DNA of 64,000 bases from Escherichia phage nieznany. The stretch is from the sequence record NC_052659.1. One strand, 5' to 3'. The translations under genes were made by a program, and so were the position numbers. The notes beneath the pieces were generated by a model that saw nothing but the letters and a program-made list of their open reading frames with translations, did no database searches and had not been told where the DNA came from. Shown here one piece after another: positions 37,164 to 63,991 of this stretch; the stretch's first letter is position 1, and the number at the start of each line of letters is the position of its first letter.

Positions 37164-38096
37164 ATGTCCGTAATTAATACTGAAACTGATCGTAAAGGCA
37201 AAACCGTAACTTATGCAACTGGTATCGTAGACTACGTCAAACTGGATAAATTCGCTGAACCTAAAACTTTTCATTGGGAAGGAAAAACGATTGTTTCAAC
37301 TCACCGAGCCTCTCTTGTTCTGAAAGAGAAAGGTGCTAAACCAGATGAGAAAGGTGTTTGGATTTCTCTTGGTGACATTGAACTGAAAGAAGGTTATGAA
37401 AACCTGCAAGTCAAAGAAGGTGATAATTGGATCACTATTGAAAAAGGTGTAGAAGTAAGTATTGATATTGATCGCGTTGATAATAAAGGCGGTAAAACTT
37501 ACTACAATACTAAAAAATCTCGTATTACAGTATTGTCTACCGATGGTGTTCAGAAGTCTAACAAATCTTCTGGCAATAAAGGTTCCAACGATGCTGCTCC
37601 TAAGCAGTCCTATAAAAAACGTGATACTGTAGGTCTGGAAACTGGTCACGCAGTAAATGGTGCACTGGAACTGATTCGTAATGGTGTTAAAGGCGATGCT
37701 TTCGATATCGCTGGGGTTGTTCAATCTGCAACTGTCACGCTGAAATCTGAAATTGCTGAATCTCGTGGCGTTGATATTAATGATTATGATCTTGGGGCAT
37801 CTGTTGGTCACGCTATTCTCAATGCTTGTAAAGACCATACCATTAAGACTGTCTCTGTAGAAGATCTGATTGATTCTGCTCGTAAAGTTCTGGCTCTGTC
37901 TGATAAAGTTGCTGCTGCCATTCGTGGTTCCGCAGAACAGCCTAAGAAAGAAGAGAAGAAAGAAGTTAAGAAACCTGAACCACAACCAGAACCAACTCCA
38001 AGTAATCAAGAAGAACCTCCAATGGACTTCGACGATGATATTCCATTTGCCCCTATTGGACTGCAATATGGTCGAAACTTCCTGCATTGCTTCTAA
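37164..38096 (+). CDS. single-stranded DNA-binding protein (T7 gp2.5-like) with SSB-type acidic tail
   Basis: gp2.5-like N-terminus, Gly/Lys-rich linker, acidic tail ..EEPPMDFDDDIPF identical in style to the bacterial SSB C-terminus, followed by a 15-aa extension; GAGGAG SD. Confidence 0.6.
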   Translation: MSVINTETDRKGKTVTYATGIVDYVKLDKFAEPKTFHWEGKTIVSTHRASLVLKEKGAKPDEKGVWISLGDIELKEGYENLQVKEGDNWITIEKGVEVSIDIDRVDNKGGKTYYNTKKSRITVLSTDGVQKSNKSSGNKGSNDAAPKQSYKKRDTVGLETGHAVNGALELIRNGVKGDAFDIAGVVQSATVTLKSEIAESRGVDINDYDLGASVGHAILNACKDHTIKTVSVEDLIDSARKVLALSDKVAAAIRGSAEQPKKEEKKEVKKPEPQPEPTPSNQEEPPMDFDDDIPFAPIGLQYGRNFLHCF

Positions 38097-38562
38097 GGTT
38101 TGTTTCAAGTGTGGGGTGTTAAAGCCCCTCACTGAATTTTACAAACATAAAGCTATGGCTGACGGTCACGTCAATAAATGCAAGGAATGTAATAAGAAAG
38201 ATGTTAAACAGAATCGTAAAGATAAATCTGAATATTACAAAGAGTATGATAAAAACAGAGATCAGACCCCAGAGCGCAAAGCTTTGAAAGAGGCTTACGC
38301 AAAAGGGAAAGGTAAAAATAAGGCCAATGAAGCTAAGAAACGTTACATCGAAAAGAATCCGAAAAAACGTTCTGCTCATATAGCTGTAGGTAACGCACTC
38401 CGAGATGGAAAGTTAGTAAAACAACCTTGCCAAGTGTGTGGGTCTGTTGATGTTCATGCTCATCATTGTGATTATGATAAACCGTTAGATGTTCTATGGC
38501 TGTGTCCTCTACACCATGAGGCTTGGCATCAAGAACATGGTGAAGGATTGAACGCTGAATAA
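38068..38562 (+). CDS. HNH endonuclease (free-standing homing-endonuclease type)
   Basis: CQVCGSVDVHAHHCDYDKPLDVLWLCPLHHEAWH is a canonical HNH/zinc-finger core; likely start ATG 38068 overlapping the 3' end of the SSB ORF. Confidence 0.7.
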   Translation: MVETSCIASKVCFKCGVLKPLTEFYKHKAMADGHVNKCKECNKKDVKQNRKDKSEYYKEYDKNRDQTPERKALKEAYAKGKGKNKANEAKKRYIEKNPKKRSAHIAVGNALRDGKLVKQPCQVCGSVDVHAHHCDYDKPLDVLWLCPLHHEAWHQEHGEGLNAE

Positions 38563-41313: not shown

Positions 41314-43338
41314 TTATCGTGTTACAACAACCATGTCCACGATATCACCCACACCAGGATACGTTAATTGCAAAATTGTTACTGCGTTAGCAGTAGTTGC
41401 TATTTCTGTATCATTTAGTGCTCCATAAGACGCATCTAGTGTAACCGTGTGTCCCGTTGTATCTTGAATCAAATAAATCATTGCTGAAAACGCTTTAGGT
41501 TTTGTAGAGCCAGTGACACCAGGCCATGCTCCAACTGTCAGAGCGTCAGTTACTGTAACAACATACATATTGGAAGTTCCAGAAGGAGTCCAAGATGCTC
41601 CAGAGTTGGCAGTAGTTGTTTCAAGTTCCATGAAACCTGCTGTAACTTTAGTTGGTGTTATAGCTTCCGTAGGATCTGATCCTGATATTTCGATCCAGTT
41701 TCCATCAGAACGACCATACGTCAAGCCGTCTTGAGGGGCTTCTGGTATACTAGGAAGAGTTCCTATAAGTGTCCACGTAGAAGAATCTGTTTTCTTAAAC
41801 ACTGCTCCAGTGGTAGTATTGAAGGCGTAATCATTGATAACACCGTCTCCTGCGACTGGATTAGTTGTTGCTACAAACCATTGTGCGCCGTCCTTACCGT
41901 TGGTCCCATTAGTACCATTGGTTCCGTTTGCTCCTGGATCACCTTTCTCACCTTTATCTCCCTTCTCGCCTTTGTCACCTTTAATACTCCCCATGTCAAC
42001 AAAAGATGCGGAATTGGTGTCTTGATCATAAGTATAGATGTAAAGATTACTGGTGTCTTCAGTTAAATAAGCATCGCCATAGTTATTATAAACGGGGAGA
42101 GCTTCTCCATTTGCAACATGACCTTTAGCTGTAATAGATCTACCACCCAAACTACCCACATTGAGCCACGTTTGATTGTCGTCGATCCACACGTAAAGGT
42201 CATTTTTTACAATGTAGGCATCACCAACCTCCGCTACAGACGGTAGTTCTGAAACATCTGACAATTCGCCATTTACAGAAAGACCTGCACCAACCGGACC
42301 TTGGATACCTTGAACACCCTGTTCACCTTGTGGACCAGGATCTCCCTTATCTCCTTTGTCCCCCTTCTCTCCTTTTAAGGAAGCAACAAAATCTACTTCT
42401 GTCCCTTCATTACCAGCATCCAGCCAACTTTGATATGCAGATTTCCCTTCGTCTCCATCTGTTCCATCTAGACCGTCTTTACCTGCCTCACCTTGTGGAC
42501 CTTGAGGACCAACAATATTACCCATGTTGACCCAAGCTGTCCCATTAGAGACATAAAGATTGCCATTGATAGAATAAGCTTGGCTTACGTTTTCAGAGTT
42601 AGGTTGTGGTAAGTTACTTGTAGAAGGCAAATCCCCACGATAATCAAAACCGTTGGCGTTAACACCAGGTGCTCCCTGTGGCCCTGTAGGACCAACATCG
42701 CCTTTATCGCCTTTTATAGAGGTAAGAAAATCATAAACAGACCCTGTATTACCATCTGCCAACCATACCTCGTAAGCTGATTTACCTTCTGGCCCAAGAG
42801 AAGAAATAAGTTTCCAAACAGAACCATCCCAAGCGTAAATCACATCACCTACAATATAACCATCCCCTGCAACGTTACCTGTAGATGGTAGTTCACTAGT
42901 GCTTGCTAATGATCCTTTAATATTAAGTTGAGCACCAGTATCCCCTTTCAAAGAGGCAAGCCATTGTGCTTCTGTTCCAACAAAACCATTATCAAGTGCG
43001 ATCTGATAAGCCGATTTACCAGCTTCAGGTATTGTTTCCGACAGATCATCAATCTGTTGCTGCACTGCCGTAAACTTGGCATTGATAATTGCTATATCAT
43101 CAGCGGTCCCAACACTTTGCCATGCAAGGGAAGAAATACCACCTGTGGTGGCTGGCGTAGAGTTTGCTGGAACTACTTTAGGAAAAGTTCCTTTCCATTG
43201 GTAATAATTCCCTTCTGCTGCTAACAGCAAAACTTCACGGGAATTACGTAATGTAAAACCTGCCTCAAAGCTGCGACGTTTTCGATAAGTAGCTTCTACC
43301 AGATCGGCTATCGCACTATTAGGTCTTGTTAAATTCAT
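41314..43338 (-). CDS. tail fibre protein with collagen-like Gly-X-Y tracts and triplicated fibre repeats
   Basis: Four Gly-X-Y tracts (e.g. GDKGEKGDKGEKGDPGANGTNGTNGTNGKDG) and three copies of GKSAY..WL..G..G.E..F..SLKG, the lambda-Stf-type phage tail fibre repeat. Confidence 0.65.
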   Translation of the reverse strand: MNLTRPNSAIADLVEATYRKRRSFEAGFTLRNSREVLLLAAEGNYYQWKGTFPKVVPANSTPATTGGISSLAWQSVGTADDIAIINAKFTAVQQQIDDLSETIPEAGKSAYQIALDNGFVGTEAQWLASLKGDTGAQLNIKGSLASTSELPSTGNVAGDGYIVGDVIYAWDGSVWKLISSLGPEGKSAYEVWLADGNTGSVYDFLTSIKGDKGDVGPTGPQGAPGVNANGFDYRGDLPSTSNLPQPNSENVSQAYSINGNLYVSNGTAWVNMGNIVGPQGPQGEAGKDGLDGTDGDEGKSAYQSWLDAGNEGTEVDFVASLKGEKGDKGDKGDPGPQGEQGVQGIQGPVGAGLSVNGELSDVSELPSVAEVGDAYIVKNDLYVWIDDNQTWLNVGSLGGRSITAKGHVANGEALPVYNNYGDAYLTEDTSNLYIYTYDQDTNSASFVDMGSIKGDKGEKGDKGEKGDPGANGTNGTNGTNGKDGAQWFVATTNPVAGDGVINDYAFNTTTGAVFKKTDSSTWTLIGTLPSIPEAPQDGLTYGRSDGNWIEISGSDPTEAITPTKVTAGFMELETTTANSGASWTPSGTSNMYVVTVTDALTVGAWPGVTGSTKPKAFSAMIYLIQDTTGHTVTLDASYGALNDTEIATTANAVTILQLTYPGVGDIVDMVVVTR
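41891..41979 (-). repeat. triplet-periodic (GGN-NNN-NNN) collagen-like coding repeat
   Basis: Visible on the plus strand as CACCTTTCTCACCTTTATCTCCCTTCTCGCCTTTGTCACC; similar tracts near 42297-42372, 42455-42510 and 42670-42725. Confidence 0.6.
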
Positions 43339-48399: not shown

Positions 48400-49029
48400 T
48401 TAATCTATTTGCTTGAGAAGCGTACACATGCGTCCTGTTTCATCCCCAGTAGATTCCATATACAGGGAACCTAAACCACCAATACCATGAGGCGGTTTGG
48501 TAGCATAATAAGAACTAAAACCAAAAGCTGATCCTGCTTTTGCTCCAAGACGGTAGCTACTAATGATAGGGAAAACACTTAGCAACTGTTCTAAAGCTTG
48601 ATCAGATTGAAGACACAGGTTGTAGAAAAACACATCAAAGGTTTTATTCAAACCTACGTAAGTATTAAGCGTTTCACGCTCTGTTCCTGTGAAACGGGCG
48701 AAGATATCAATTATGTCACCACGAGTCCCCGATGAGGCTACGCGGTAAGCCCTGATTTTTAATATTGTTCTATACTCTTCATCATCAGAGCCATTACGTT
48801 CGATCCCCATTTCTTCTCCTAAGATATCTAGGTATTTGCCTGTGGCTGTGGAGATCAAGCGGTGTTTAGCAAGATAGATCATTGCCTGATCTATCTTTTG
48901 CTTTTCACTGGATACGATGTAGAGGAGCTTGACAATGTTAGGAGAAGATTTAAAATCTTCAATCAGAAGGTTTTTAACGTCTTCATTGATACTGGCCCAA
49001 GTTGTTACATGGTCAACACTCACTGCCAT
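48400..49029 (-). CDS. baseplate protein (gpI-like by position)
   Basis: 209 aa directly downstream of the J-like gene; context only. Confidence 0.35.
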   Translation of the reverse strand: MAVSVDHVTTWASINEDVKNLLIEDFKSSPNIVKLLYIVSSEKQKIDQAMIYLAKHRLISTATGKYLDILGEEMGIERNGSDDEEYRTILKIRAYRVASSGTRGDIIDIFARFTGTERETLNTYVGLNKTFDVFFYNLCLQSDQALEQLLSVFPIISSYRLGAKAGSAFGFSSYYATKPPHGIGGLGSLYMESTGDETGRMCTLLKQID

Positions 49030-49031
49030 TT

Positions 49032-50519
49032 TTACACTCCATACTCGTAAGAAATGTTATCAAGGTCAAAAGAAGGGACAACATTATAAGCAGGAACTAT
49101 ATTATTCTCTGTATATTTACTGTCATCCTCAGTATTAAGTTTAACATAAACACGAAGAGAAGTCAAGCGTCCAAAAGCAAGTGCTGCATAAATAACACCT
49201 TTGATTTGATCGTTCGTTACTGAAGAACCTAATTCAAAGTAAGCTTGCAGGTTTTGTAAAGCTTCTACGATGTTTTGTTTTTCTGTTCCACTTAAAGTTG
49301 TTCCGTTGACAGTTTGATAAACAAGTTTTACAGAATACATAGCAGAAGCACCAGGGGAGAAGCGAATAATTTCTTGTCCTCCATCTTCTGTTGTAACTGT
49401 TATGTTAGTTGTTCCGTGTGTCAAAGTGTTGATTGGTTTGGTTTTATAGATAACATTTGCAATTTCTTCAGCACTCCCTCCATAAACTATAGTCTGGAAA
49501 GTCATAGCTGGAGCATGTTCTTGATCATGTAACGTAGGGTTATCATAAATCTTCACCTTAGTAACACCATCTGTAAGTAACAGAGCTTTCACAATAGCTG
49601 CTCGTGTCCCTGCGTTAGCTTCGTCAACGTTGTCATTGAAACGAGAGCGGAATTCTGCGTCTGTCTCAACATCTCGACCAGGGGAAAATGAATAGAAGTT
49701 ACCACTATCAAGATAACCTGTAAAGGTAGAAGATATCCCTGTAATAGACTCCACACCAACAGGATTGTATCCTTTCTCTGCTGCAACTACCGGAATCTCA
49801 CTCCACTTGGTTCCAACCGGAACACTAGCATAAAATTTAATAGGAGTTACCAGCCCCACTGGAGTATCACTGGTTAAAGAAGTAAAACCAATTGATAAGT
49901 TACCTGAATCAGAAAATACAAGACTACGATCAGCTTCTGTTAAATTCGCCTTGATAAAAGTTTCAAGATCGGTTATAAATGTAGAAGAACCAGGTGCAAG
50001 TGTTTTACTGTTTAGTCCTCCATCCACCGCACTTTGTGCATAAAAAGTAATATTTGGAACACCTGTAGCAGTTGCATTAGCACGAGAGATTTGATAAGCT
50101 GCAATCTTAGCATTCAACATAGTTGGTGTGCTAACATAGTAGTTCATATCACTATCAGAGTTGAAGTAAATATCCGTGCCTAACTCATAAGTCCAAGCTG
50201 CTTTGTTATTACTCTTAACATAGGCATAACCTGTACTTGCTGCTGCCCCTGCTCGATAGAAACCGCGTTTAGAAAAGATTTCGTCAAGATAAATACCTTC
50301 TGCACCATCCAGTGTTTGAGTATTATAAACACCTTGCATACCTTCCCACAATGTGTAATCTGTGTACGCAATTATTCTAAACAGTTGTCCGATCACAGTA
50401 TCTTCCGAAGTGGCTGCATCTGCACCAAATGTGTTTTTTACTGCTGTCATATAATTGTTTAGAACATCGTCAAAAGTCGGGATTACAAATCCCGCATCTG
50501 TCAAACCATATTCGTCCAT
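49032..50519 (-). CDS. baseplate J-like protein
   Basis: N-terminal region (..TVIGQLFRIIAYTDYTLWEGMQ..DGAEGIYLDEIFSKRGFYRAGAAASTGYAYV) fits the baseplate J family pattern; 495 aa. Confidence 0.5.
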   Translation of the reverse strand: MDEYGLTDAGFVIPTFDDVLNNYMTAVKNTFGADAATSEDTVIGQLFRIIAYTDYTLWEGMQGVYNTQTLDGAEGIYLDEIFSKRGFYRAGAAASTGYAYVKSNNKAAWTYELGTDIYFNSDSDMNYYVSTPTMLNAKIAAYQISRANATATGVPNITFYAQSAVDGGLNSKTLAPGSSTFITDLETFIKANLTEADRSLVFSDSGNLSIGFTSLTSDTPVGLVTPIKFYASVPVGTKWSEIPVVAAEKGYNPVGVESITGISSTFTGYLDSGNFYSFSPGRDVETDAEFRSRFNDNVDEANAGTRAAIVKALLLTDGVTKVKIYDNPTLHDQEHAPAMTFQTIVYGGSAEEIANVIYKTKPINTLTHGTTNITVTTEDGGQEIIRFSPGASAMYSVKLVYQTVNGTTLSGTEKQNIVEALQNLQAYFELGSSVTNDQIKGVIYAALAFGRLTSLRVYVKLNTEDDSKYTENNIVPAYNVVPSFDLDNISYEYGV

Positions 50520-51612: not shown

Positions 51613-52971
51613 TTAGAGCATCAGATAATTTTTTACATATCTGGCCAATTCTACCAGCGTCATTGTTTCGGTATTTTTGACCGTGCCATCCGCTGTTCCA
51701 CCTAGCTGGAAAATTCCAGTTTGTCTGACTGAAAGAACTTTAGTGCTGTTTATAGATATGTTCATATTTCTGAAGTTAAATGCACCTGTCGCATCTTCGT
51801 AACCAATCCACTTCGTTACTCCGGCGACCGGACCCCAGTAAATCCTATGGTCTATATCTAAGTTTATTGCATTACTTTCTTGAAATCTCGCACCAAGAGT
51901 GTTCAGACCATATGTGAAGTTGATTCCAGTTCCGTCAGCCCGTGGACCAAGTTTTATTCCTCCATAACGATGAAGGTTAGACACTGACCCTTCGATTTTC
52001 AGCTGTTGAGTATCTTCCAAATAAGCATTTTTCCAATCTCCGGAAGGGAGCACACCACCCCTTCTAAGCCTCATGCCTATCCACCAGCCAGACTCTCCTA
52101 CTGGACGGTTTGAGCCATCTCCAACGTCAATTCCAATACCACAAGCTGAACCACCGTCCGCAGTAGTAACGATAAGACCTCGATAAGGCCCCTCCCCTGT
52201 GGGAAGGTTTTCCGGATGAGGCTGAGATGAGAATGAATTCACCAGATTTAATTCACATCCGACTAACTGAGAAGAGCGCACTCCAGAGCCATCATTACCA
52301 TTCCCTGCCTGACCCCAAAGACCCCAAACCCTCCCGTTTCGTCCTATAGCTTTACCAGAACCATGTACGCCTATAGCGTCAACTGATTTTCCAGAGGTTA
52401 ATACATCACCAGCCGAAGATCTTACATAGCCCGAGACACCAATCCCAAAGGCTGACGCCTCCGGTTCAAGGGTTATCGTTCCCTGCATAGCAACATCAAA
52501 CCATTTTGTGCCCCCCTCTTCCCTTTTCATCTTGGAGGTTTTTTCTGCCCAGATTAATGGGTAAGGGTTTTCGGCTCCGGCTCCGGGTAAACCGCGCTTT
52601 AATTTGAACCCACCAGAATAGTTCCTAAACGAAGGATATATATTAAACGTTGCATCAACAGTATTGGGCCAATACCCTTCTGGGACAAGGTAGGTAAGGC
52701 CCGTGTTGTTCGCGGCAGTAATAGCTACCGTATTGGATTCGGAATCCCCTTTGGCTCCGCCAGCGAACCCACCCCACGTAATTGGTTTTGGAATATCACC
52801 AATAAGACCAGCCCCACCTGAATCTTTCAACTGGGTGGCTAAAACCACCCCAGTGTCAGTAAGAAAGTTGGAAACTGTGCTTTTAACAGTCTTATCAGGT
52901 TGATCTAAAACCAGGTAATCTGAACCATTAACTTTTGATGTTTCGGGTAAATTAGTAATTGTAGTTGACAT
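51613..52971 (-). CDS. tail/baseplate structural protein (452 aa)
   Basis: G/S/T-rich beta composition; within structural operon. Confidence 0.4.
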   Translation of the reverse strand: MSTTITNLPETSKVNGSDYLVLDQPDKTVKSTVSNFLTDTGVVLATQLKDSGGAGLIGDIPKPITWGGFAGGAKGDSESNTVAITAANNTGLTYLVPEGYWPNTVDATFNIYPSFRNYSGGFKLKRGLPGAGAENPYPLIWAEKTSKMKREEGGTKWFDVAMQGTITLEPEASAFGIGVSGYVRSSAGDVLTSGKSVDAIGVHGSGKAIGRNGRVWGLWGQAGNGNDGSGVRSSQLVGCELNLVNSFSSQPHPENLPTGEGPYRGLIVTTADGGSACGIGIDVGDGSNRPVGESGWWIGMRLRRGGVLPSGDWKNAYLEDTQQLKIEGSVSNLHRYGGIKLGPRADGTGINFTYGLNTLGARFQESNAINLDIDHRIYWGPVAGVTKWIGYEDATGAFNFRNMNISINSTKVLSVRQTGIFQLGGTADGTVKNTETMTLVELARYVKNYLML

Positions 52972-52979
52972 TTTTACTC

Positions 52980-55133
52980 CTATATATAAAATTTTTGTGT
53001 TGTTACTAAATCTTCTCCAGATTTAGTGGCTAATGTAATTCCACTTATGGTGGCAATCTCAACATTTACCTGTTTAAGAGTGATATCCTGTAAATAAACG
53101 TTCAAAGGCACGTTACCCATATAGAAAACTTGGGATTGAGAATTAACTACTGTGATAGAATCATGCATTATTTGAGGATAGGCCCATATATATTGTGTAA
53201 GTCCGTCAAACTTATTGGCGTTCAACACTATGTTACCTATAATCATCTTCCAAAGATATGTGCGGTAGTTTGATTTAGGATCAAAGCCATACAAAGGTGC
53301 AAGAGTAGCATCTGGAACAAAACCTGAAAGGTAGTGAATATCAGAATATTCAAAACCTAATTTTTCATGTGGTATAGTAATTGCATCAAATGCTTTCATC
53401 ATCTTACCTTCCAGAAGCCAGTCATAACACTCTGAACAGTAAAAATCAAAAGCTTCAGGAATGTAGTAATCAGACGGGAAGTTAACTTTCTCCATCAAAC
53501 CGTTGCCGATAATTGATGGCAAGAACGGAAGCAATGTTACCTTGGCTCCTGGGTAAGTTGCTCTAGTATCTGTTGCAAACTTTGTAACTCTTAATCCTAG
53601 TTTACGAGACAAAAATGCATAGTATTCGTCAAACGGCGTTCCTGTTTTATAATTATCTATTGTTCCTGCATCTTGTGCAAATAAACCTGTTTCTGTGTTG
53701 AATGCCAGTTTGGTAGTGTAATCATATATGCAAGGCATTTTACTTGCTGTATTATACCACCACCAAGGCTCACCAATTTGAATGACAACTGGAATATTAT
53801 TAGCTTGCGAAATAGATGCTATTTTATTAATAACATTTTGCAAATATTCCATACCTTCGTCAATAGTTGGAGACAACACATAACTAGGAGGTTTATACCC
53901 TGTTGCTGCAAGAGCATCGTTCCAATCATGCTGAACCCATTCTACAGGACAAACTGTGCTCATCAATTCAAAACTTAAAGAGTTCATTATTGTGTAGCCC
54001 TTCTCGTTTGCTATAGAATGGAAGCTGTTAAGCCAAGCTTCTGTAGCCGGATTCAGGAAAACAGATTTATTTAAAGCCCAAGATGTTCCATTCCATGAGA
54101 ACTCATAATAGTGAGACATTCCGTTATAATGGTTAATCATCCCACGATAACCTAGTGCATATGTATTATAAATAACTCTCTCTGGAGTCAGGTTATACAT
54201 ATCATCATAAGATGTGCACATGCGAATATCATGTTCAGGCTGGACAAGGTTGCTGACTTTCATCATACTGTAACCAGAGGTAGGTTCAAGAAGAGTGAAA
54301 GTAAACCAAGCCTCTTGACTGTCAATAGGTACAACCTCTTCTATTTCTTCGTACCTTGCTGTAATCAAAGAGAAGAAAATATTATCTACAGCACTCATAT
54401 CCAAAGGAATATCATTATTAGGGCCAGAAAAGATATTACCAAAATCTAACTTGATTGTAGCTGTTTTACCATCTTCTGAAATATCTAAAGCGTAGAATCC
54501 TAAACTGACATAATGAACACTTTTATCCAGGAGAGTTACAGTCAAAGTCGGCACCAAAGGTTCTTCTTTAAAACCTGGCATGTTTTGACTAATTTCCATT
54601 TTAAACCAAAGTTTCTCTGAACTTAAATCTGTGTGGGGTAAATACCCAACACCTTTATGGTCATATTTGTCAACTGTGCTCCAGATAACCCCTGCCAAAC
54701 CTGCTGTTGTTCTGTTTACAAATCTTGCAGTAAAAGAGTCTCCATGAGATACAATAGAACAACTTTCCGTTGCTTGAGAATCTATTGTCCAATACATAGG
54801 AGAGAACATTTTAACGTCTTTTGTAGTCCAAGTTATTGGAGTAGTATTTTCTTGGATAGTAGTTATAATACAATTGATGGTTGTTTCAACCATCATATTA
54901 TTTTGACTAATCCCTGAAACTTGGAGGGAGAAGTTAAGATCTATTGAGTTCTTTGGTCGTTCAAATACTTCAACCACAATAGTAGCAGAATCAGCATCAT
55001 CAGGGAACACAAGTGTTCCCGATTTTGCAATATAATCTCTACCAGCGACTGCTGTTCCGTCAACAGTCGTGTAGTTAAATGAACTCGCATTTACTCTCTT
55101 GTCTCGCGTGACAGTAAATATAGCTTGTTTCAT
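52980..55133 (-). CDS. large tail-associated protein (717 aa), possible enzymatic domain
   Basis: Aromatic-rich globular C-terminal half (IGEPWWWYNT); no motif assignable by eye. Confidence 0.4.
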   Translation of the reverse strand: MKQAIFTVTRDKRVNASSFNYTTVDGTAVAGRDYIAKSGTLVFPDDADSATIVVEVFERPKNSIDLNFSLQVSGISQNNMMVETTINCIITTIQENTTPITWTTKDVKMFSPMYWTIDSQATESCSIVSHGDSFTARFVNRTTAGLAGVIWSTVDKYDHKGVGYLPHTDLSSEKLWFKMEISQNMPGFKEEPLVPTLTVTLLDKSVHYVSLGFYALDISEDGKTATIKLDFGNIFSGPNNDIPLDMSAVDNIFFSLITARYEEIEEVVPIDSQEAWFTFTLLEPTSGYSMMKVSNLVQPEHDIRMCTSYDDMYNLTPERVIYNTYALGYRGMINHYNGMSHYYEFSWNGTSWALNKSVFLNPATEAWLNSFHSIANEKGYTIMNSLSFELMSTVCPVEWVQHDWNDALAATGYKPPSYVLSPTIDEGMEYLQNVINKIASISQANNIPVVIQIGEPWWWYNTASKMPCIYDYTTKLAFNTETGLFAQDAGTIDNYKTGTPFDEYYAFLSRKLGLRVTKFATDTRATYPGAKVTLLPFLPSIIGNGLMEKVNFPSDYYIPEAFDFYCSECYDWLLEGKMMKAFDAITIPHEKLGFEYSDIHYLSGFVPDATLAPLYGFDPKSNYRTYLWKMIIGNIVLNANKFDGLTQYIWAYPQIMHDSITVVNSQSQVFYMGNVPLNVYLQDITLKQVNVEIATISGITLATKSGEDLVTTQKFYI

Positions 55134-55141
55134 TTTACCCC

Positions 55142-58018
55142 TTACTCGGTAACGTCCACACTAATGTTTGCCATTGTCAAAACAGTAAGTGCAGGAATAT
55201 TGCTCGAATCCAAAACAGGTAATGCATTTTGGGGATTAAGTTTTTTGTATAAAGCATACAACCCAAAACCACGTAACAACTCTCCAGCGTGGAAGCCAAA
55301 GAAGACTCCGTTATCACTGTCTGGTCTAGGAGCAGCACTCCAACAACCATTCATAACGTGATTAGGACCAAGAACAATATAGTTTTCCTGAATAAGTTCA
55401 AAACAGCGGTCTGCTACTATTTTAATGTTAGGAATTTCTGAATCATATCCAGCCATCCCCATTATAGCACATCCCGCCATAAAGAGCGCAGACATGTGAC
55501 TTGTAAAGTCATCTACAGGCGCAGCCACTTCTCCGTTGGGATAAAATATTGTTGGTGTTCTTCCTTCGTTGTTATCTTGGAACCACTTCAGGTAGTTGAT
55601 CCAGTTTTTACAAACTGTTAAAAGTTTTTCAGGAACTTCGGCTCCTCGTCGCTTTAGTTCGTATACCGTATGACACGCACAGAAGAATGCTCGTGCTTCA
55701 TAACCATCCCAAGCTTTATCGTTCCAATGATACATTGTGAACTCATTTTTGTTTCCATATTTATGAGCATCCCAACGATCCCAAACATAAGCTTGTGCCA
55801 TTGGCCCAGGCATTACAGGGGCAAACTTATTATAAAACCACATTTGTGAATCATATAAAAAGTCTATACTGTTGTTCATACGAACCCAGTCAATATCTCT
55901 CCCTTTAAAACAATATAAGGATGGGTATTGATAACCTGGGTAAGGAATACCACGCCAACCGTCATATAATGCTGTGTTAGGATCACTAATATTGGAAAAT
56001 GGAATGATTCCTGGAGTATAATTCAAACTGTCAAGTTTGTAGTCCAGTATTGTACAATCTCCAAGTTTTGCTGTATAAGGATTTTCAGATGAAACTGTAA
56101 CCCTGAAATACATTGTGTAATCATCGCCAGCGGCTGAAGAATACAAAGATGGGATATCGTTAACGCAATAAAAGTCGATTGCCCCTGTCAAGCCATTTGC
56201 AGGTTCAGAATCCAATGCAATATTGATCTGATCAACAGCAGTCAGGTTTATTGACGAAGGTTTTGCCTCTGTGTCTTCGTGATTAGGTTGCCAAGTACTT
56301 AATTTGAAATCGGCAGGACTTAAAGCTTTAGTAACCCATGCAGAATTTGTTTTTTCTAACATGGCCCACCATCTCCAACCTGCGGAATCCGTAATAGTGA
56401 TGTTAAAATCATCTGCGTATGAACGATACGTAATAGATTTTAAATTGGCTGTTTTAGTTGGTGTTAACCAAAACCCAACAGTAAAACCACCATCTGAATC
56501 CATATTAGCAGAAACTATCTGATCACTATTTGTCCCAGCAATACCAGTTGCATATTTATATTGTATCACAGTATTGCTTCCCCAGTCAACAATAATTCTG
56601 GGTTCAGCAATAATATATACACCACCTCCAGGAGGTTCGGTGCGCATAAAACTAGATAAAGGTATATCCATCTTAGTCATATTAGCTGCACCAAGAGGTA
56701 AGCCACAACGATATGTCACTGTGTCTGTTTCACTCTTAGTCTTGCTTAATTCTAACTCTGGACGGAAAAGAACACCTTCCCCTGCATCATCTACACCTTG
56801 AAACTCAATACGCAGTTTTGAATTCTGATCCACTCTGAACCAAACTGCCTGTTGTTCTAGAGTTGTTTGTGCTGAAACATCTTGGCGAATTACTGTGTAT
56901 CCTAATTCGTCACGAGAATATTTAGGTATTGCTGTAGATGGGTATGAGTAATCATACGAGATACCATCTGTAAAAGGAATTATTGCTGTCGTAGATCTAC
57001 GGAAGAATTTATCAAACATATCGATGTTTGAGTAGTCTTGACACAACAATAAAGAAGATTGCCAGCAAAGCCAGTATTTTCTCTCTCCTGTGATCTGATA
57101 CATCAAGTAGTTTGCATCACACCACCACGTTTCAGCATCGGAAGCATTATCTTGATAGCCTAACTCTACCGGAACGTTCACAGGACGGTTATGCCACATC
57201 TCATTACGCTTAAGCAGATATCCACCGTGTTCTACAGGATTGCATGTAGCGTAGTTGAATTTATAGTCCCCGTTCACAGAAGCATTTTTAAGTTGCACTG
57301 TTCCATATTCTGCGAAGCTGTGACCTGTAGATAAAATGTTACCATCCCAATCAACTTTACGTCCTAGACGATCTATAATCCATTCAACGTCCCACTGATC
57401 TCCATATTCTTTCCAGTTGGTTGAACCATCTGGGTTAGTTGCATACACTGTTGCGTTAACAGAGTTCCAACCAAGATTACCATTGAAAGCAAACCAAGCT
57501 TTATCTAAGTATTCTCCCCAGTGTGGCGCACCTTTAGGAATAATAGTCCTTCCGTTAATCCAAGTCATCATGCTACCTTTGAACCCACCGTGCGTAGGAT
57601 ACCCATCATCTGTGAGAGGGTAATGTGCTAAACGTGGTTCTTTACCATTGATGATCCAGTTGGGACGATATTTAGCCGGAGGATCAGGAATAGGTTGGCC
57701 CCCGAAGAAGTGATCTATATAGGCTTGCCAATACTTCTCGGCAGATTCAAGATATTTTTTATCCCCTGTAGCCAAATATGCATAAGCAAAACCAGTGATA
57801 AGCACAGATTGACCTTCGGTAGTAGCGTCACCGTTTGGTTGCCCTTCCTGCGCTGTCCAGTTAATAAAGTGTCTGTTGTTCGCCAATACGTTTTGTGGGT
57901 TGATAATGTAATGCTGAACCGTAGGATCTATGGTAAGCCCAGTATTTCTTTCCAAAAACTGAACCAACCCTTCAATCAACTGAAACGTGTTGTCAATATT
58001 GTGCTTAACTCTTGACAT
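55142..58018 (-). CDS. large Trp-rich tail-associated protein (958 aa), possible carbohydrate-active domain
   Basis: High Trp/Tyr content typical of glycan-binding or glycan-degrading folds; context in the tail module. Confidence 0.35.
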   Translation of the reverse strand: MSRVKHNIDNTFQLIEGLVQFLERNTGLTIDPTVQHYIINPQNVLANNRHFINWTAQEGQPNGDATTEGQSVLITGFAYAYLATGDKKYLESAEKYWQAYIDHFFGGQPIPDPPAKYRPNWIINGKEPRLAHYPLTDDGYPTHGGFKGSMMTWINGRTIIPKGAPHWGEYLDKAWFAFNGNLGWNSVNATVYATNPDGSTNWKEYGDQWDVEWIIDRLGRKVDWDGNILSTGHSFAEYGTVQLKNASVNGDYKFNYATCNPVEHGGYLLKRNEMWHNRPVNVPVELGYQDNASDAETWWCDANYLMYQITGERKYWLCWQSSLLLCQDYSNIDMFDKFFRRSTTAIIPFTDGISYDYSYPSTAIPKYSRDELGYTVIRQDVSAQTTLEQQAVWFRVDQNSKLRIEFQGVDDAGEGVLFRPELELSKTKSETDTVTYRCGLPLGAANMTKMDIPLSSFMRTEPPGGGVYIIAEPRIIVDWGSNTVIQYKYATGIAGTNSDQIVSANMDSDGGFTVGFWLTPTKTANLKSITYRSYADDFNITITDSAGWRWWAMLEKTNSAWVTKALSPADFKLSTWQPNHEDTEAKPSSINLTAVDQINIALDSEPANGLTGAIDFYCVNDIPSLYSSAAGDDYTMYFRVTVSSENPYTAKLGDCTILDYKLDSLNYTPGIIPFSNISDPNTALYDGWRGIPYPGYQYPSLYCFKGRDIDWVRMNNSIDFLYDSQMWFYNKFAPVMPGPMAQAYVWDRWDAHKYGNKNEFTMYHWNDKAWDGYEARAFFCACHTVYELKRRGAEVPEKLLTVCKNWINYLKWFQDNNEGRTPTIFYPNGEVAAPVDDFTSHMSALFMAGCAIMGMAGYDSEIPNIKIVADRCFELIQENYIVLGPNHVMNGCWSAAPRPDSDNGVFFGFHAGELLRGFGLYALYKKLNPQNALPVLDSSNIPALTVLTMANISVDVTE

Positions 58019-62116: not shown

Positions 62117-63991
62117 TTAACCACCAGTGTTAGATTGTCCACTTAGAGTTGAAAGAGACAAACGTTGGAAAATGCTATTTCCGCTATTTTGAATTCTTGC
62201 ATCAAGAATATTTCCAAACTCTGAAGAAGGGCTGATCGTAACTTTGATAAGATCACTTGGTATTGCTACCGTATTCTCAACAACAGGTTGATTACGAGCC
62301 AAACTTACGTTAGGTGTATAAGCTGATTCACGTAAATCTTCAAGAGGATTACCAAATCCAAAAGCACGTGTCCTTGTTTGTTCTCCTCTCCACATACGAC
62401 CAATATCTTGTGTATCAATACCTGTTAAATTGTACAACCAATCTGCTACAGGATTGCTGTCTCCACTTTGCGTTGCCTCGTATGCTTTTTGTGCTATAGG
62501 TTTATTAGGATCTGTGTTGTCTCCGAATGTATCTGGGAATGTTTCTTTAAGCCAATTGGTAAAAGATCCGAAACCATCTCCCAATTCTTTAGCAAAACCT
62601 CCTAATTGAACTGTTGTCTTACCGAGTTCTTCACCTAAATCTTTGGCAAACTGGTCTAGCACTTTAACGTTATCCAACCAAGAATCATCTTTAGGTAAGG
62701 CTTTCACAAAACCCTCTAAGAAGTGGTTCTGCATACCTTGACCTACAAGCTGAACTGTTGCAGCAAAACGAGTAAACTCTTTAGAAGCATCTATTTGTTC
62801 TTGAGTTAATGTTGCACCTGTTCTTTGAAGCATTTTCAATACTTCATTATACCCTTCGCCGTTTTTACTAAACATACGTTGGTAGTGCATAAGGTCATCA
62901 CCAAGGTTTTCAAGAAGTCGCCCGATTTGAGCAGAGTTCATACCTCGACGCTCACCTTCATTAACAGTAGCCTGAATAAAAGCTAAAGGATCGTTCTGTA
63001 AAGGTTTAAGCTGTTCTGGATTCCATCCAAACAAGTTCATAATGTCATTTATGCCATTATCACCGCCTTTCCACTTCCCTTCTTTCTCATTCCATTTTGA
63101 GGCTAAAACTGTATTACCAAGACGTTCACGAACGTCTTTAATATTATCTATTGACTTAATAATATTTGCAGAGTCTACACCGTTCTGTTCACCCCAAGCT
63201 GTCATTGCCAAAATAGCGTTGGCGTTTGTCTGAACGTTTTCAGCACCACGACTTACAAGTTTAATTCTTTCGTTAGTATTCATCAACGTGTTACCAACTA
63301 CAGAACCACCTGCAAACAGCCCAGCACCTATTAAAGAGGATGCAATCATGCGTGGATTAAGACCTGCTGCACCTTCTTTTAATTGTCCATATCGACGATC
63401 ACGATCACGTTTTTGTTGAGCTAATTCACGCTTACGGTTGCGTTCTATATCTCTAAGTTCACGATTTCGCATACGTATACGCATTTTAGCTTCTGCTTCT
63501 AGCTCTCTACGAATACGGCGACGACCGCGAACCTCGTCTTCTATTTCGGCATTCTTTTCACGATGAGATCTGCGTAAGGCATCTAACTGGTGAGCAAGAG
63601 CTTGGTTCATACGTTGAAGAGTTATTTCACCCTTTTTGTATTGCTCTACAGCTTTACCCATAACGTCCCTAGCTTCTTGCATAGCACCAGGACTGGCTTT
63701 ACTAAATGCTCTTGCTCTGTAGTTAAAGTTCTGCAAACGAAGATTACCTAAATCTTCCCTACGTGCTGCTGCTTTAGCTTCGCGTTCAGCAGCTTTACGA
63801 GCTTTTTCTTCTTCTCTTCCTTGCGGGGTTTTAGGAGTTCTAGGTCTACCAGATCCTCCTACAGGAGCACCCGCTCCAGCGTGAGTAGGTGCTCGCATAG
63901 GTTTTTGACTTTGAGTTTGAGCTTTCTTAAGTTCACGCTCAATCTCTTTCATTTGTTGTCTAAACTTGGTCATGTTCATAGTGGGTTGCAT
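62117..63991 (-). CDS. tape-measure-like protein (624 aa)
   Basis: Arg/Glu/Lys-rich coiled-coil N-terminal third, Gly-rich hydrophobic segment LIGAGLFAGGSVVG, long helical remainder; sits directly upstream of hub/spike/wedge genes. Confidence 0.45.
   Translation of the reverse strand: MQPTMNMTKFRQQMKEIERELKKAQTQSQKPMRAPTHAGAGAPVGGSGRPRTPKTPQGREEEKARKAAEREAKAAARREDLGNLRLQNFNYRARAFSKASPGAMQEARDVMGKAVEQYKKGEITLQRMNQALAHQLDALRRSHREKNAEIEDEVRGRRRIRRELEAEAKMRIRMRNRELRDIERNRKRELAQQKRDRDRRYGQLKEGAAGLNPRMIASSLIGAGLFAGGSVVGNTLMNTNERIKLVSRGAENVQTNANAILAMTAWGEQNGVDSANIIKSIDNIKDVRERLGNTVLASKWNEKEGKWKGGDNGINDIMNLFGWNPEQLKPLQNDPLAFIQATVNEGERRGMNSAQIGRLLENLGDDLMHYQRMFSKNGEGYNEVLKMLQRTGATLTQEQIDASKEFTRFAATVQLVGQGMQNHFLEGFVKALPKDDSWLDNVKVLDQFAKDLGEELGKTTVQLGGFAKELGDGFGSFTNWLKETFPDTFGDNTDPNKPIAQKAYEATQSGDSNPVADWLYNLTGIDTQDIGRMWRGEQTRTRAFGFGNPLEDLRESAYTPNVSLARNQPVVENTVAIPSDLIKVTISPSSEFGNILDARIQNSGNSIFQRLSLSTLSGQSNTGG

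Follow-up and report, generated by a model that had tools for sequence, protein, structure and literature searches.

What do two very large proteins do in the tail operon of a contractile-tailed phage when their genes stand between those of two baseplate wedge components? The question is raised by Escherichia phage nieznany (sequence record NC_052659.1), of which we analysed a stretch of 64,000 nucleotides (the window; one strand, 5' to 3'). Within its densely packed minus-strand tail operon, two intact open reading frames (ORFs), each with an ATG start, code for proteins of 958 and 717 amino acids (aa). A first reading of the letters alone, hereafter the sequence-only reading, had reported both ORFs correctly and had placed them between a gp25/W-like and a J-like gene, as PHROG and Pfam matches of the flanking genes bear out; it also took this position to be unusual, and proposed that the pair carry glycan-binding or hydrolase/lyase domains and represent either additional depolymerases or a structurally novel baseplate expansion. 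We favour, with a probability of about 0.6, an account in which both are virion proteins, conserved and non-fibrous, that sit at the baseplate periphery, have glycoside hydrolase (GH) folds, and would bind and probably cleave glycans.

Part of this picture is already known, as the phage genome is deposited, the orthologues were predicted to be of glycosidase type in 2012, and the 717-aa protein falls into a curated Pfam family with a solved relative from phage N4. New are the clan GH-M-like assignment that a structural model suggests for the 958-aa protein, with inserts resembling carbohydrate-binding modules (CBMs) and GH8-like motifs; a cassette of adaptor plus enzyme-like protein, together with its fusions; the split-barrel relation to N4; the likely misnaming of an N4-like protein as a 'deacetylase'; and the suggestion that both proteins explain unassigned density in the baseplate of phage phi92. 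The phi92, phAPEC8 and rV5 groups are widely isolated, are included in therapy cocktails and show unusually broad host recognition, and the assignment of their appendages to genes has been called unclear in the literature.

Orthology, folds and conserved residues

The 5-kb region is 100% identical to that of Escherichia phage tuntematon (NC_052660.1), a Phapecoctavirus of the Stephanstirmvirinae isolated on K-12 MG1655, and about 98% identical to phAPEC8 and many further isolates; both proteins are 98-99% identical among Phapecoctavirus isolates from diverse hosts. Gene order matches that of phi92 (Justusliebigvirus) gene for gene over the stretch bounded by the tape measure and colanidase genes, so that a place between the W-like and J-like genes is normal for the lineage and no anomaly. 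By BLASTP, phi92 gp141 is 83% identical to the 958-aa protein over 958 aa, gp142 is 77% identical to the 717-aa protein over 719 aa, and gp140 is 83% identical to the 157-aa protein encoded directly upstream. With full-length identity and the same flanks (gp139/gp140 upstream; a spike slot, then gp145/gp146), the two proteins belong to the gp141/gp142 orthologous groups of the Stephanstirmvirinae tail module, and the idea of a structurally novel expansion finds no support. The adjacent slot differs, being filled here by a 452-aa spike and in phi92 by the endosialidase gp143; these are 62% identical over residues 1-86 and have no match beyond, the anchor being their common part.

The 958-aa protein gave no sequence match in Pfam, NCBIfam or PDB (the latter searched by phmmer and by profile hmmsearch); PHROG 2871, labelled 'tail protein', matches it. 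Its tryptophan content of 3.5%, the highest among 40 ORF-length stretches in the window (median 1.37%), agrees with the sequence-only reading, which had called the protein strikingly Trp-rich. The AlphaFold2 (AF2) model (pLDDT 87.8, pTM 0.83) is a globular single chain with neither a beta-helix nor a trimer, in which helices at residues 7-104, 293-330 and 711-927 build an (alpha/alpha)6 barrel of the kind found in GH8 and clan GH-M. A PDB fold search with the model returned no full-length relative; Foldseek matched it to GH48 Cel48F (probability 1.0) and to the modules CBM11 and CBM22, and the beta-rich inserts, as modelled, resemble CBM beta-sandwiches. Structural scores against GH76, GH105, GH88 and epimerases fall only slightly short of those against clan GH-M.

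Three conserved motifs can be compared with GH8 BcsZ. The first, TTEGQS, has the same form as 'TSEGQS' of BcsZ, whose Glu is mutated in PDB 3qxq; E68 and Q70 are each kept in 68 of the 69 homologues and by all of the eight most divergent members, and E68 is a candidate catalytic acid in the model. The second, NASDAETW, can be likened to 'ASDGD.W' of E. coli BcsZ, with N291, D294, E296 and W298 invariant in 69 sequences and D294 and E296 present in distant members too. Both BcsZ-like motifs occur in the same order as in BcsZ, stand in the fitting helix register of the model and are essentially invariant, outliers of 30% identity included; the patterns TEGQS and ASDAE, which were defined post hoc, co-occur in that order in one of 200,000 composition-matched shuffles (5e-6). 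The third motif, RWDAHKY, weakly resembles 'YDAIR' of BcsZ; its R748, D750 and Y754 are invariant in the 69 sequences, but the rV5-like homologue LL12 does not keep D750, which judging from the alignment is a possible catalytic base. Compared with the GH8 pattern, which has its catalytic Glu in [ST]-E-G-Q and a PROSITE-type signature with A-[ST]-D-[AG]-D at helix N-termini, the second acid of the 958-aa protein is Glu, not Asp, and the remaining signature is unmatched. GH8 membership is not claimed, sequence and profile tests having failed or proved marginal, and the protein is likened, as a working comparison drawn from its model, to glycosidases of clan GH-M type (GH8/GH48/GH126). It differs from GH8 (BcsZ, CelA), GH48 (Cel48F) and GH126 (CPF_2247, PDB 3ren) in having no significant sequence or profile similarity to them, in a barrel broken by two large beta inserts and in a catalytic base that is only tentative.

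The 958-aa family was found by tblastn in 532 phage records, and forms only 384 clusters at 50% identity among 1.84 billion representatives. Its carriers include rV5-like, FelixO1-like and Rosemountvirus-size myoviruses, jumbo phages, Vibrio phages and T7-like podoviruses, and its members are 43-55% identical across phages and prophages of Escherichia, Enterobacter, Salmonella, Pseudomonas, Stenotrophomonas and marine Gammaproteobacteria. Because the family is conserved across genera, its distribution argues for a substrate that is a glycan common to Gammaproteobacteria.

For the 717-aa protein, family membership is evident at the sequence level: PF23844 (NCTSP_N) and PF23845 (TIM-barrel_NCTSP) match with 58.6 and 266.5 bits, against cut-offs of 27, and a PDB sequence search retrieved phage N4 gp64, aligned to query residues 361-606 at E = 3.5e-30, and gp65, aligned to residues 270-344. 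The confident AF2 model (pLDDT 92.0, pTM 0.89) is a globular single chain devoid of beta-helix or trimeric spike architecture and has the same fold as the solved N4 protein. N4 gp64 and the GH153 hydrolase domain of PgaB are the nearest folds to its barrel, followed by GH42, Cwp19, GH29, GH14, GH164 and GH5. The modelled (beta/alpha)8 fold thus resembles PgaB/BpsB; with the C-terminal domain of these proteins (GH153, a poly-beta-1,6-GlcNAc hydrolase; PDB 6au1) the 717-aa protein shares 8% identity, and profile comparison gave no signal.

The aromatic core that the sequence-only reading had singled out in this protein, QIGEPWWWYNT, corresponds to residues 452-462, and Q452, G454, E455, P456 and W457-W459 are invariant across 43 homologues. 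In TIM-barrel glycosidases, active sites lie at the C-terminal ends of the barrel strands; by the DSSP register of the model, D310/D311, E389 and E455, invariant in the 43 homologues, and the near-invariant E568 lie at such ends. E389, E455 and E568 are kept in N4 gp64, and the DD motif in N4 gp65. Conserved carboxylates and aromatics would thus occupy the expected active-site positions in both models, at helix N-termini in the 958-aa protein and at strand ends, followed by WWW, in the 717-aa protein. Fold prediction and structural search, which had been named as the means of checking the proposal of carbohydrate-enzyme domains, gave enzyme-type folds for both proteins, (alpha/alpha)6 with CBM-like inserts in one and (beta/alpha)8 in the other, and purely structural folds, the outcome named beforehand as refuting that proposal, for neither.

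Earlier work noted that N4 gp64 is homologous to a 'lateral tail fibre' conserved in the Vequintavirinae and their relatives, and labelled the protein a poly-GlcNAc or glycan 'deacetylase' from a Phyre2 result. Since the part of PgaB that is matched in the fold search is the hydrolase domain and not the CE4 deacetylase, this label is probably a naming artefact that came with PgaB's name, and the published wording should be corrected in favour of the PgaB hydrolase fold that the model indicates.

These results also bear on the proposal of additional depolymerases, namely classical capsule- or O-antigen-specific enzymes that widen the host range in the manner of an endosialidase or a colanidase. 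Both proteins have glycosidase folds and share an operon with genuine tailspikes, and phi92 gp141/gp142 have been listed as predicted 'glycosidase' tail proteins beside the endosialidase (Schwarzer et al. 2012, as relayed by PMC5380687 and PMC10269720, one of them a 2017 review). Nevertheless, we consider this explanation improbable: a beta-helix or beta-propeller trimer is found in neither globular chain, and no allelic variability tracks the host surface type, given the near-identity of both proteins among Phapecoctavirus isolates of different hosts and an identity across genera in the 958-aa family that is the opposite of what a serotype-specific enzyme would show. The BASEL authors call most of this locus highly conserved, in contrast to three variable fibre genes, and the variable slot is the neighbouring gene, which codes for the 452-aa spike here and for the endosialidase in phi92.

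The proposed adaptor cassette, its fusions and the N4 sheath

The conserved C-terminal domain of the 157-aa adaptor has no match in PDB, family-profile search included, or in Pfam. Five unrelated phages encode it directly upstream of a 958-like gene: tuntematon, the podovirus ISAO8, LL12, an SU10-like podovirus and a Vibrio phage of the Grimontviridae. The N-terminus of the adaptor differs by virion type; ISAO8 has Phage_T7_tail (the T7 tail-fibre N domain), LL12 has Tail_spike_N. Pairing was counted over 85 loci with a 958-like gene, with a same-strand ORF directly upstream as the requirement, and an adaptor-domain ORF occupies that place in 71 of them. The 14 exceptions consist of three loci at contig edges, six gpI fusions and five others, most of which look like ORF-calling artefacts (ISAO8, whose adaptor is known, being an example). 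From this gene pairing we infer that the C-terminal domain docks the enzyme-like 958-aa module. The arrangement recalls the adaptor-tailspike systems of podoviruses (K1-5/K1E/SP6 gp37-type; G7C gp66/gp63.1; the branched tailspike complex of CBA120), in which a small protein with a virion-specific N-domain likewise carries a host-recognition module. In those systems, however, the cargo is a trimeric beta-helix spike, whereas here it is a globular (alpha/alpha)6 protein, and the adaptor C-domain is peculiar to the 958-aa family.

A motif of ~40 aa at the N-terminus is common to the 452-aa spike, the 157-aa adaptor and LL12 gp43 (Pfam Tail_spike_N), and has no similarity to N4 gp66. From sequence comparison, the 452-aa spike and gp143 look like one conserved anchor with swappable catalytic cargo.

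Fusions point to the same part of the particle. In a P2-like prophage, the 958-like module is joined to P2 gpI (Tail_P2_I), the fused gene coming straight after V, W and J; elsewhere the module is joined to a lambda-type minor tail protein and to a Phage-tail_3/gpJ-like protein. In two further fusions, P0097 of an SU10-like podovirus (record L003, 6691-11364) and P0264, the 958-like part is followed by NCTSP_N and a TIM barrel of the 717-like kind; being independent, these lend Rosetta-stone support to a physical link between both proteins. In rV5-like phages, the 717-like gene comes after the I-like wedge gene instead. Read together, fusions and adaptors would put the 958-like module at the distal periphery of the tail whatever the morphotype. 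It is on these grounds that we regard as highly improbable an explanation by which the proteins degrade peptidoglycan or another envelope component for tail penetration and not for adsorption. A universal substrate would fit the strong conservation across Gammaproteobacteria, but the modules are attached to peripheral parts (gpI, tail-fibre N-domains) and not to a central spike or tape measure reaching the periplasm, the phage has a separate central spike, and the (alpha/alpha)6 matches are polysaccharide hydrolases rather than muramidases.

At the tail-fibre position of the T7-like Yersinia phage ISAO8 (Autographiviridae; L007, 5139-8733), a 269-aa protein with the T7-fibre N-domain and a 930-aa 958-like protein are encoded by the sole genes present, ahead of the holin and terminase genes, and a globular protein of glycosidase fold seems to replace the conventional fibre. 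In an IMG/VR prophage-like contig (L050, 8304-12814), a 560-aa protein ending in the adaptor C-domain accompanies a 940-aa 958-like protein; this arrangement occurs in siphovirus-like elements of ~30 kb (~35 similar contigs), with the capsid/head-completion genes on one side and the tail tube gene on the other. Such a position, outside the baseplate region, suggests a different attachment site, possibly the neck or side fibres.

The relation of the 717-aa protein to N4 was resolved by aligning it with the two-chain sheath of that phage (gp65-gp64 heterodimer; PDB 9lc0, 9yf4; PF23844/PF23845). In the N4-like phage vB_Eco_AL25, gp65 (L002, 2484-6632) matches NCTSP_N and positions 4-46 only of the barrel profile, and gp64 (L002, 6665-7918) covers positions 60-347; gp65 residues 51-415 align to residues 102-343 of the 717-aa protein with 99.7% probability (hhalign). 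The barrel of N4 is thus split, gp65 supplying NCTSP_N with strand/helix 1-2 and gp64 the remainder, and the 717-aa protein is the unsplit form of the module that N4 makes from the gp65 N-terminus and gp64. Unlike gp65, which has ~960 extra residues that bind the tail plug, it is a single chain with an added Calx-beta domain; the alignment ends at gp65 residue 415, and the plug-binding domains D9-D10 have no counterpart in it. Those C-terminal ~960 aa of gp65 show no similarity to the 958-like module. The N4 module wraps a podovirus tube as a six-fold sheath, whereas the 717-aa protein belongs to a phage with a contractile-tail baseplate and a sheath of its own.

Proposed virion location and glycan engagement, and the case for a scaffold

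Presence in the particle is documented in rV5, where gp34 (the 717-aa orthologue; 690 aa, with Calx-beta) was found in virions by mass spectrometry and gp42, the 958-aa orthologue, is among the detected virion proteins according to the text of that paper. For the GenBank label 'EPS depolymerase activity' of an rV5 orthologue, a literature search found nothing relevant as a source. The 2026 cryo-electron microscopy study of phi92 (PMC13450770) assigns gp134-139, gp145/146, gp143 (inferred) and gp147, with gp139 as the sheath initiator and gp145/gp146 as the fibre-bearing wedge, and gives no identity to fibre II, described as 'short, thick, rigid', or to the arm of fibre I, which is L-shaped. 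As a minor point, its baseplate section and its Fig 3 legend disagree on which of gp145 and gp146 adopts two conformers in each heterotrimer (PMC13450770). The adaptor and globular proteins of ~108 and ~81 kDa would be natural candidates for these densities, and obvious ones for fitting into the phi92 maps.

The same densities lend weight to the main rival, in which the two proteins are pseudo-enzymes that kept glycosidase folds, lost cleavage and form a thick, non-fibrous baseplate arm (the proximal part of fibre I and/or fibre II), serving the true tailspikes as docking platforms and acting at most as lectins. Fibre II and the fibre I arm were left without a gene in a study that screened only fibre-like candidates, the anchor motif common to adaptor and 452-aa spike needs docking sites, no GH family is recognised at the sequence level, and the literature presents N4 gp64/gp65, the nearest relative with a solved structure, as a structural sheath that also binds a protein receptor. 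A scaffold would, however, be expected to conserve its interfaces, whereas the invariant residues here are carboxylates and aromatics at positions of glycosidase catalytic centres, kept in homologues of 30% identity; and the T7-like podovirus whose only genes at the tail-fibre position are the adaptor and the 958-like gene argues for host recognition. We judge the scaffold or lectin explanation less likely, and retain the glycan-binding, probably glycan-cleaving account.

Several observations weigh against that account. Neither family has a member with a reported enzymatic activity, and the sheath protein of N4 is credited with binding the protein receptor NfrA and not with catalysis. The active-site positions were derived from secondary-structure registers and not from three-dimensional coordinates. 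At the profile level (hhalign), the 958-aa family aligned with BcsZ at a probability below 1%, for the full as well as the excised-core profile, and the 717-aa family gave no signal with E. coli PgaB (0.2%); none of the Pfam GH families matched the whole 958-aa protein or its excised barrel at E up to 10, the sole and marginal profile match being GH76 (E=0.055). A 717-like gene or domain lies within 10 kb in only four of the 85 loci with a 958-like gene, which means that the two proteins are not always paired. The phi92 study screened fibre-like predicted structures only and never mentions or places gp141/gp142 (PMC13450770). Finally, the receptor requirement discussed below was measured in Vequintavirus and phi92-like phages, none of them a Phapecoctavirus, and a literature search gave no direct data on receptor use by Phapecoctavirus.

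That requirement concerns the NGR glycan: the phages with an N4-gp64-like protein (N4, Vequintavirus and phi92-like) all require wecB and nfrB. In the literature and in the present analysis alike, the 717-aa protein is the best candidate for engaging this glycan. In the account that we favour, the variable N-terminus of the 157-aa adaptor would plug into the virion and its conserved C-domain would dock the 958-aa module and so hold on the particle this single-chain (alpha/alpha)6 barrel, which is of clan GH-M type and has CBM-like inserts. The 717-aa protein, composed of NCTSP_N, a PgaB-GH153-like (beta/alpha)8 barrel and an extra Calx-beta domain, would sit on the baseplate. Beside the swappable trimeric tailspikes, both would bind and probably cleave a conserved surface polysaccharide that is not serotype-specific, which for the 717-aa protein may be the WecB/NfrB-dependent NGR glycan required by N4, Vequintavirinae and phi92-like phages. 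Such engagement could let the baseplate reach the terminal receptor in the lipopolysaccharide core.

A more far-reaching version, which we hold to be possible though distinctly tentative, would have the adaptor and the two large proteins build fibre II and/or the fibre I arm and, in addition, the 958-aa family constitute a new, active GH family of clan GH-M type, within an adaptor-enzyme cassette that is portable among myo-, podo- and siphoviruses and acts on a surface glycan conserved in Gammaproteobacteria. If active, the 958-aa family would be an uncharacterised enzyme family so far missing from Pfam, NCBIfam and PDB, and the 717-aa protein an NGR-glycan enzyme common to N4 and these myoviruses; both proteins would then be useful as anti-biofilm or receptor-engineering parts. 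In other respects, the locus is an ordinary, previously annotated part of a known phage.

Layout of the tail operon

The features discussed are collected in Table 1. The genes are tightly spaced: the stop of the 157-aa gene overlaps the start of the 958-aa gene (TAATG), and gaps of 8 nt separate the 958-aa from the 717-aa gene and the latter from the 452-aa gene. By synteny, the gp25-like gene takes the position of phi92 gp139 and forms the upstream boundary of the module; the J-like and I-like genes (48400-50519) form its downstream boundary, and their products are its likely docking site.

Table 1. Coordinates of the tail operon genes, of the domains and motifs of their products, and of fusion records (operon rank in brackets; window positions unless a record is named).
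Feature	Residues or size	Position (strand)	Remark
Tape measure (1)		62117-63991 and beyond (-)	
Two proteins (2-3)	233 aa; 137 aa	(-)	
Hub (4)	336 aa	(-)	E217_GP41-like
Central spike (5)	244 aa	(-)	
gp25/W-like sheath initiator/wedge (6)	208 aa	58491-59117 (-)	PHROG 120 baseplate wedge subunit, 5.8e-20
Adaptor, 'tail fibre' protein (7)	157 aa	58018-58491 (-)	phi92 gp140 orthologue
Adaptor, anchor motif	N-terminal ~45 aa	58357-58491 (-)	
Adaptor, conserved domain	C-terminal ~100 aa	58021-58329 (-)	inherited together with 958-aa family
Trp-rich tail protein (8)	958 aa	55142-58018 (-)	phi92 gp141 orthologue; tuntematon JR325_gp142
958-aa protein, (alpha/alpha)6 barrel	N-terminal helices 1-120 and 291-345; C-terminal helices 701-930		
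958-aa protein, beta-rich inserts	121-290 (about 170 aa); 346-700 (about 355 aa)		interrupt the barrel
958-aa protein, first motif	T66-T67-E68-G69-Q70-S71	57806-57823 (-)	N-terminus of barrel helix 2 (first helix residue in the model: 67)
958-aa protein, second motif	N291-A-S-D294-A-E296-T-W298	57125-57148 (-)	N-terminus of barrel helix 4
958-aa protein, third motif	R748-W-D750-A-H-K-Y754	55757-55777 (-)	
Tail protein (9)	717 aa	52980-55133 (-)	phi92 gp142 orthologue; tuntematon JR325_gp141
717-aa protein, Calx-beta domain	4-82	54888-55124 (-)	Pfam
717-aa protein, NCTSP_N domain	107-292	54258-54815 (-)	Pfam
717-aa protein, TIM-barrel_NCTSP, (beta/alpha)8 barrel	299-658	53160-54239 (-)	Pfam, E = 4e-79
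717-aa protein, carboxylates	D310/D311	54201-54206 (-)	conserved
717-aa protein, carboxylate	E389	53967-53969 (-)	conserved
717-aa protein, 'IGEPWWW' core	Q452-I-G-E455-P-W-W-W459	53757-53780 (-)	C-terminal end of barrel strand beta4 (DSSP on model)
717-aa protein, carboxylate	E568	53430-53432 (-)	conserved in at least 90% of 43 homologues
Tailspike (10)	452 aa	51613-52971 (-)	slot of phi92 endosialidase gp143
Tailspike, N-terminal anchor	1-86	52714-52971 (-)	common with phi92 gp143
Several small ORFs (11)			between tailspike and Baseplate_J gene
J-like wedge protein (12)	495 aa	49032-50519 (-)	Pfam Baseplate_J, PHROG 6
I-like wedge protein (13)	209 aa	48400-49029 (-)	
Short fibre and its chaperone, then colanidase-type spike and two more fibres (14 onward)			
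958-like fusions to gpI, lambda-type and Phage-tail_3 proteins	P0087; P0305; P0327	L004 8001-11294 (P0087)	

Two opposite-strand ORFs inside the long coding genes, at 54657-54917 (+) and 57695-58015 (+), were taken as chance ORFs. Elsewhere in the window, a 230-aa ORF at 37870-38562 (+) ends in an HNH-like Cys/His arrangement (…HHCDYDKP…LCPLHHEAWH) and lies at ~38 kb, where coding strand and GC skew change sign. A 674-aa tail-fibre protein (41314-43338, -) has collagen-like G-x-y runs at several places, among them GDKGDVGPTGPQGAPG and GEKGDKGDKGDPGPQGEQGVQGIQGPVG.

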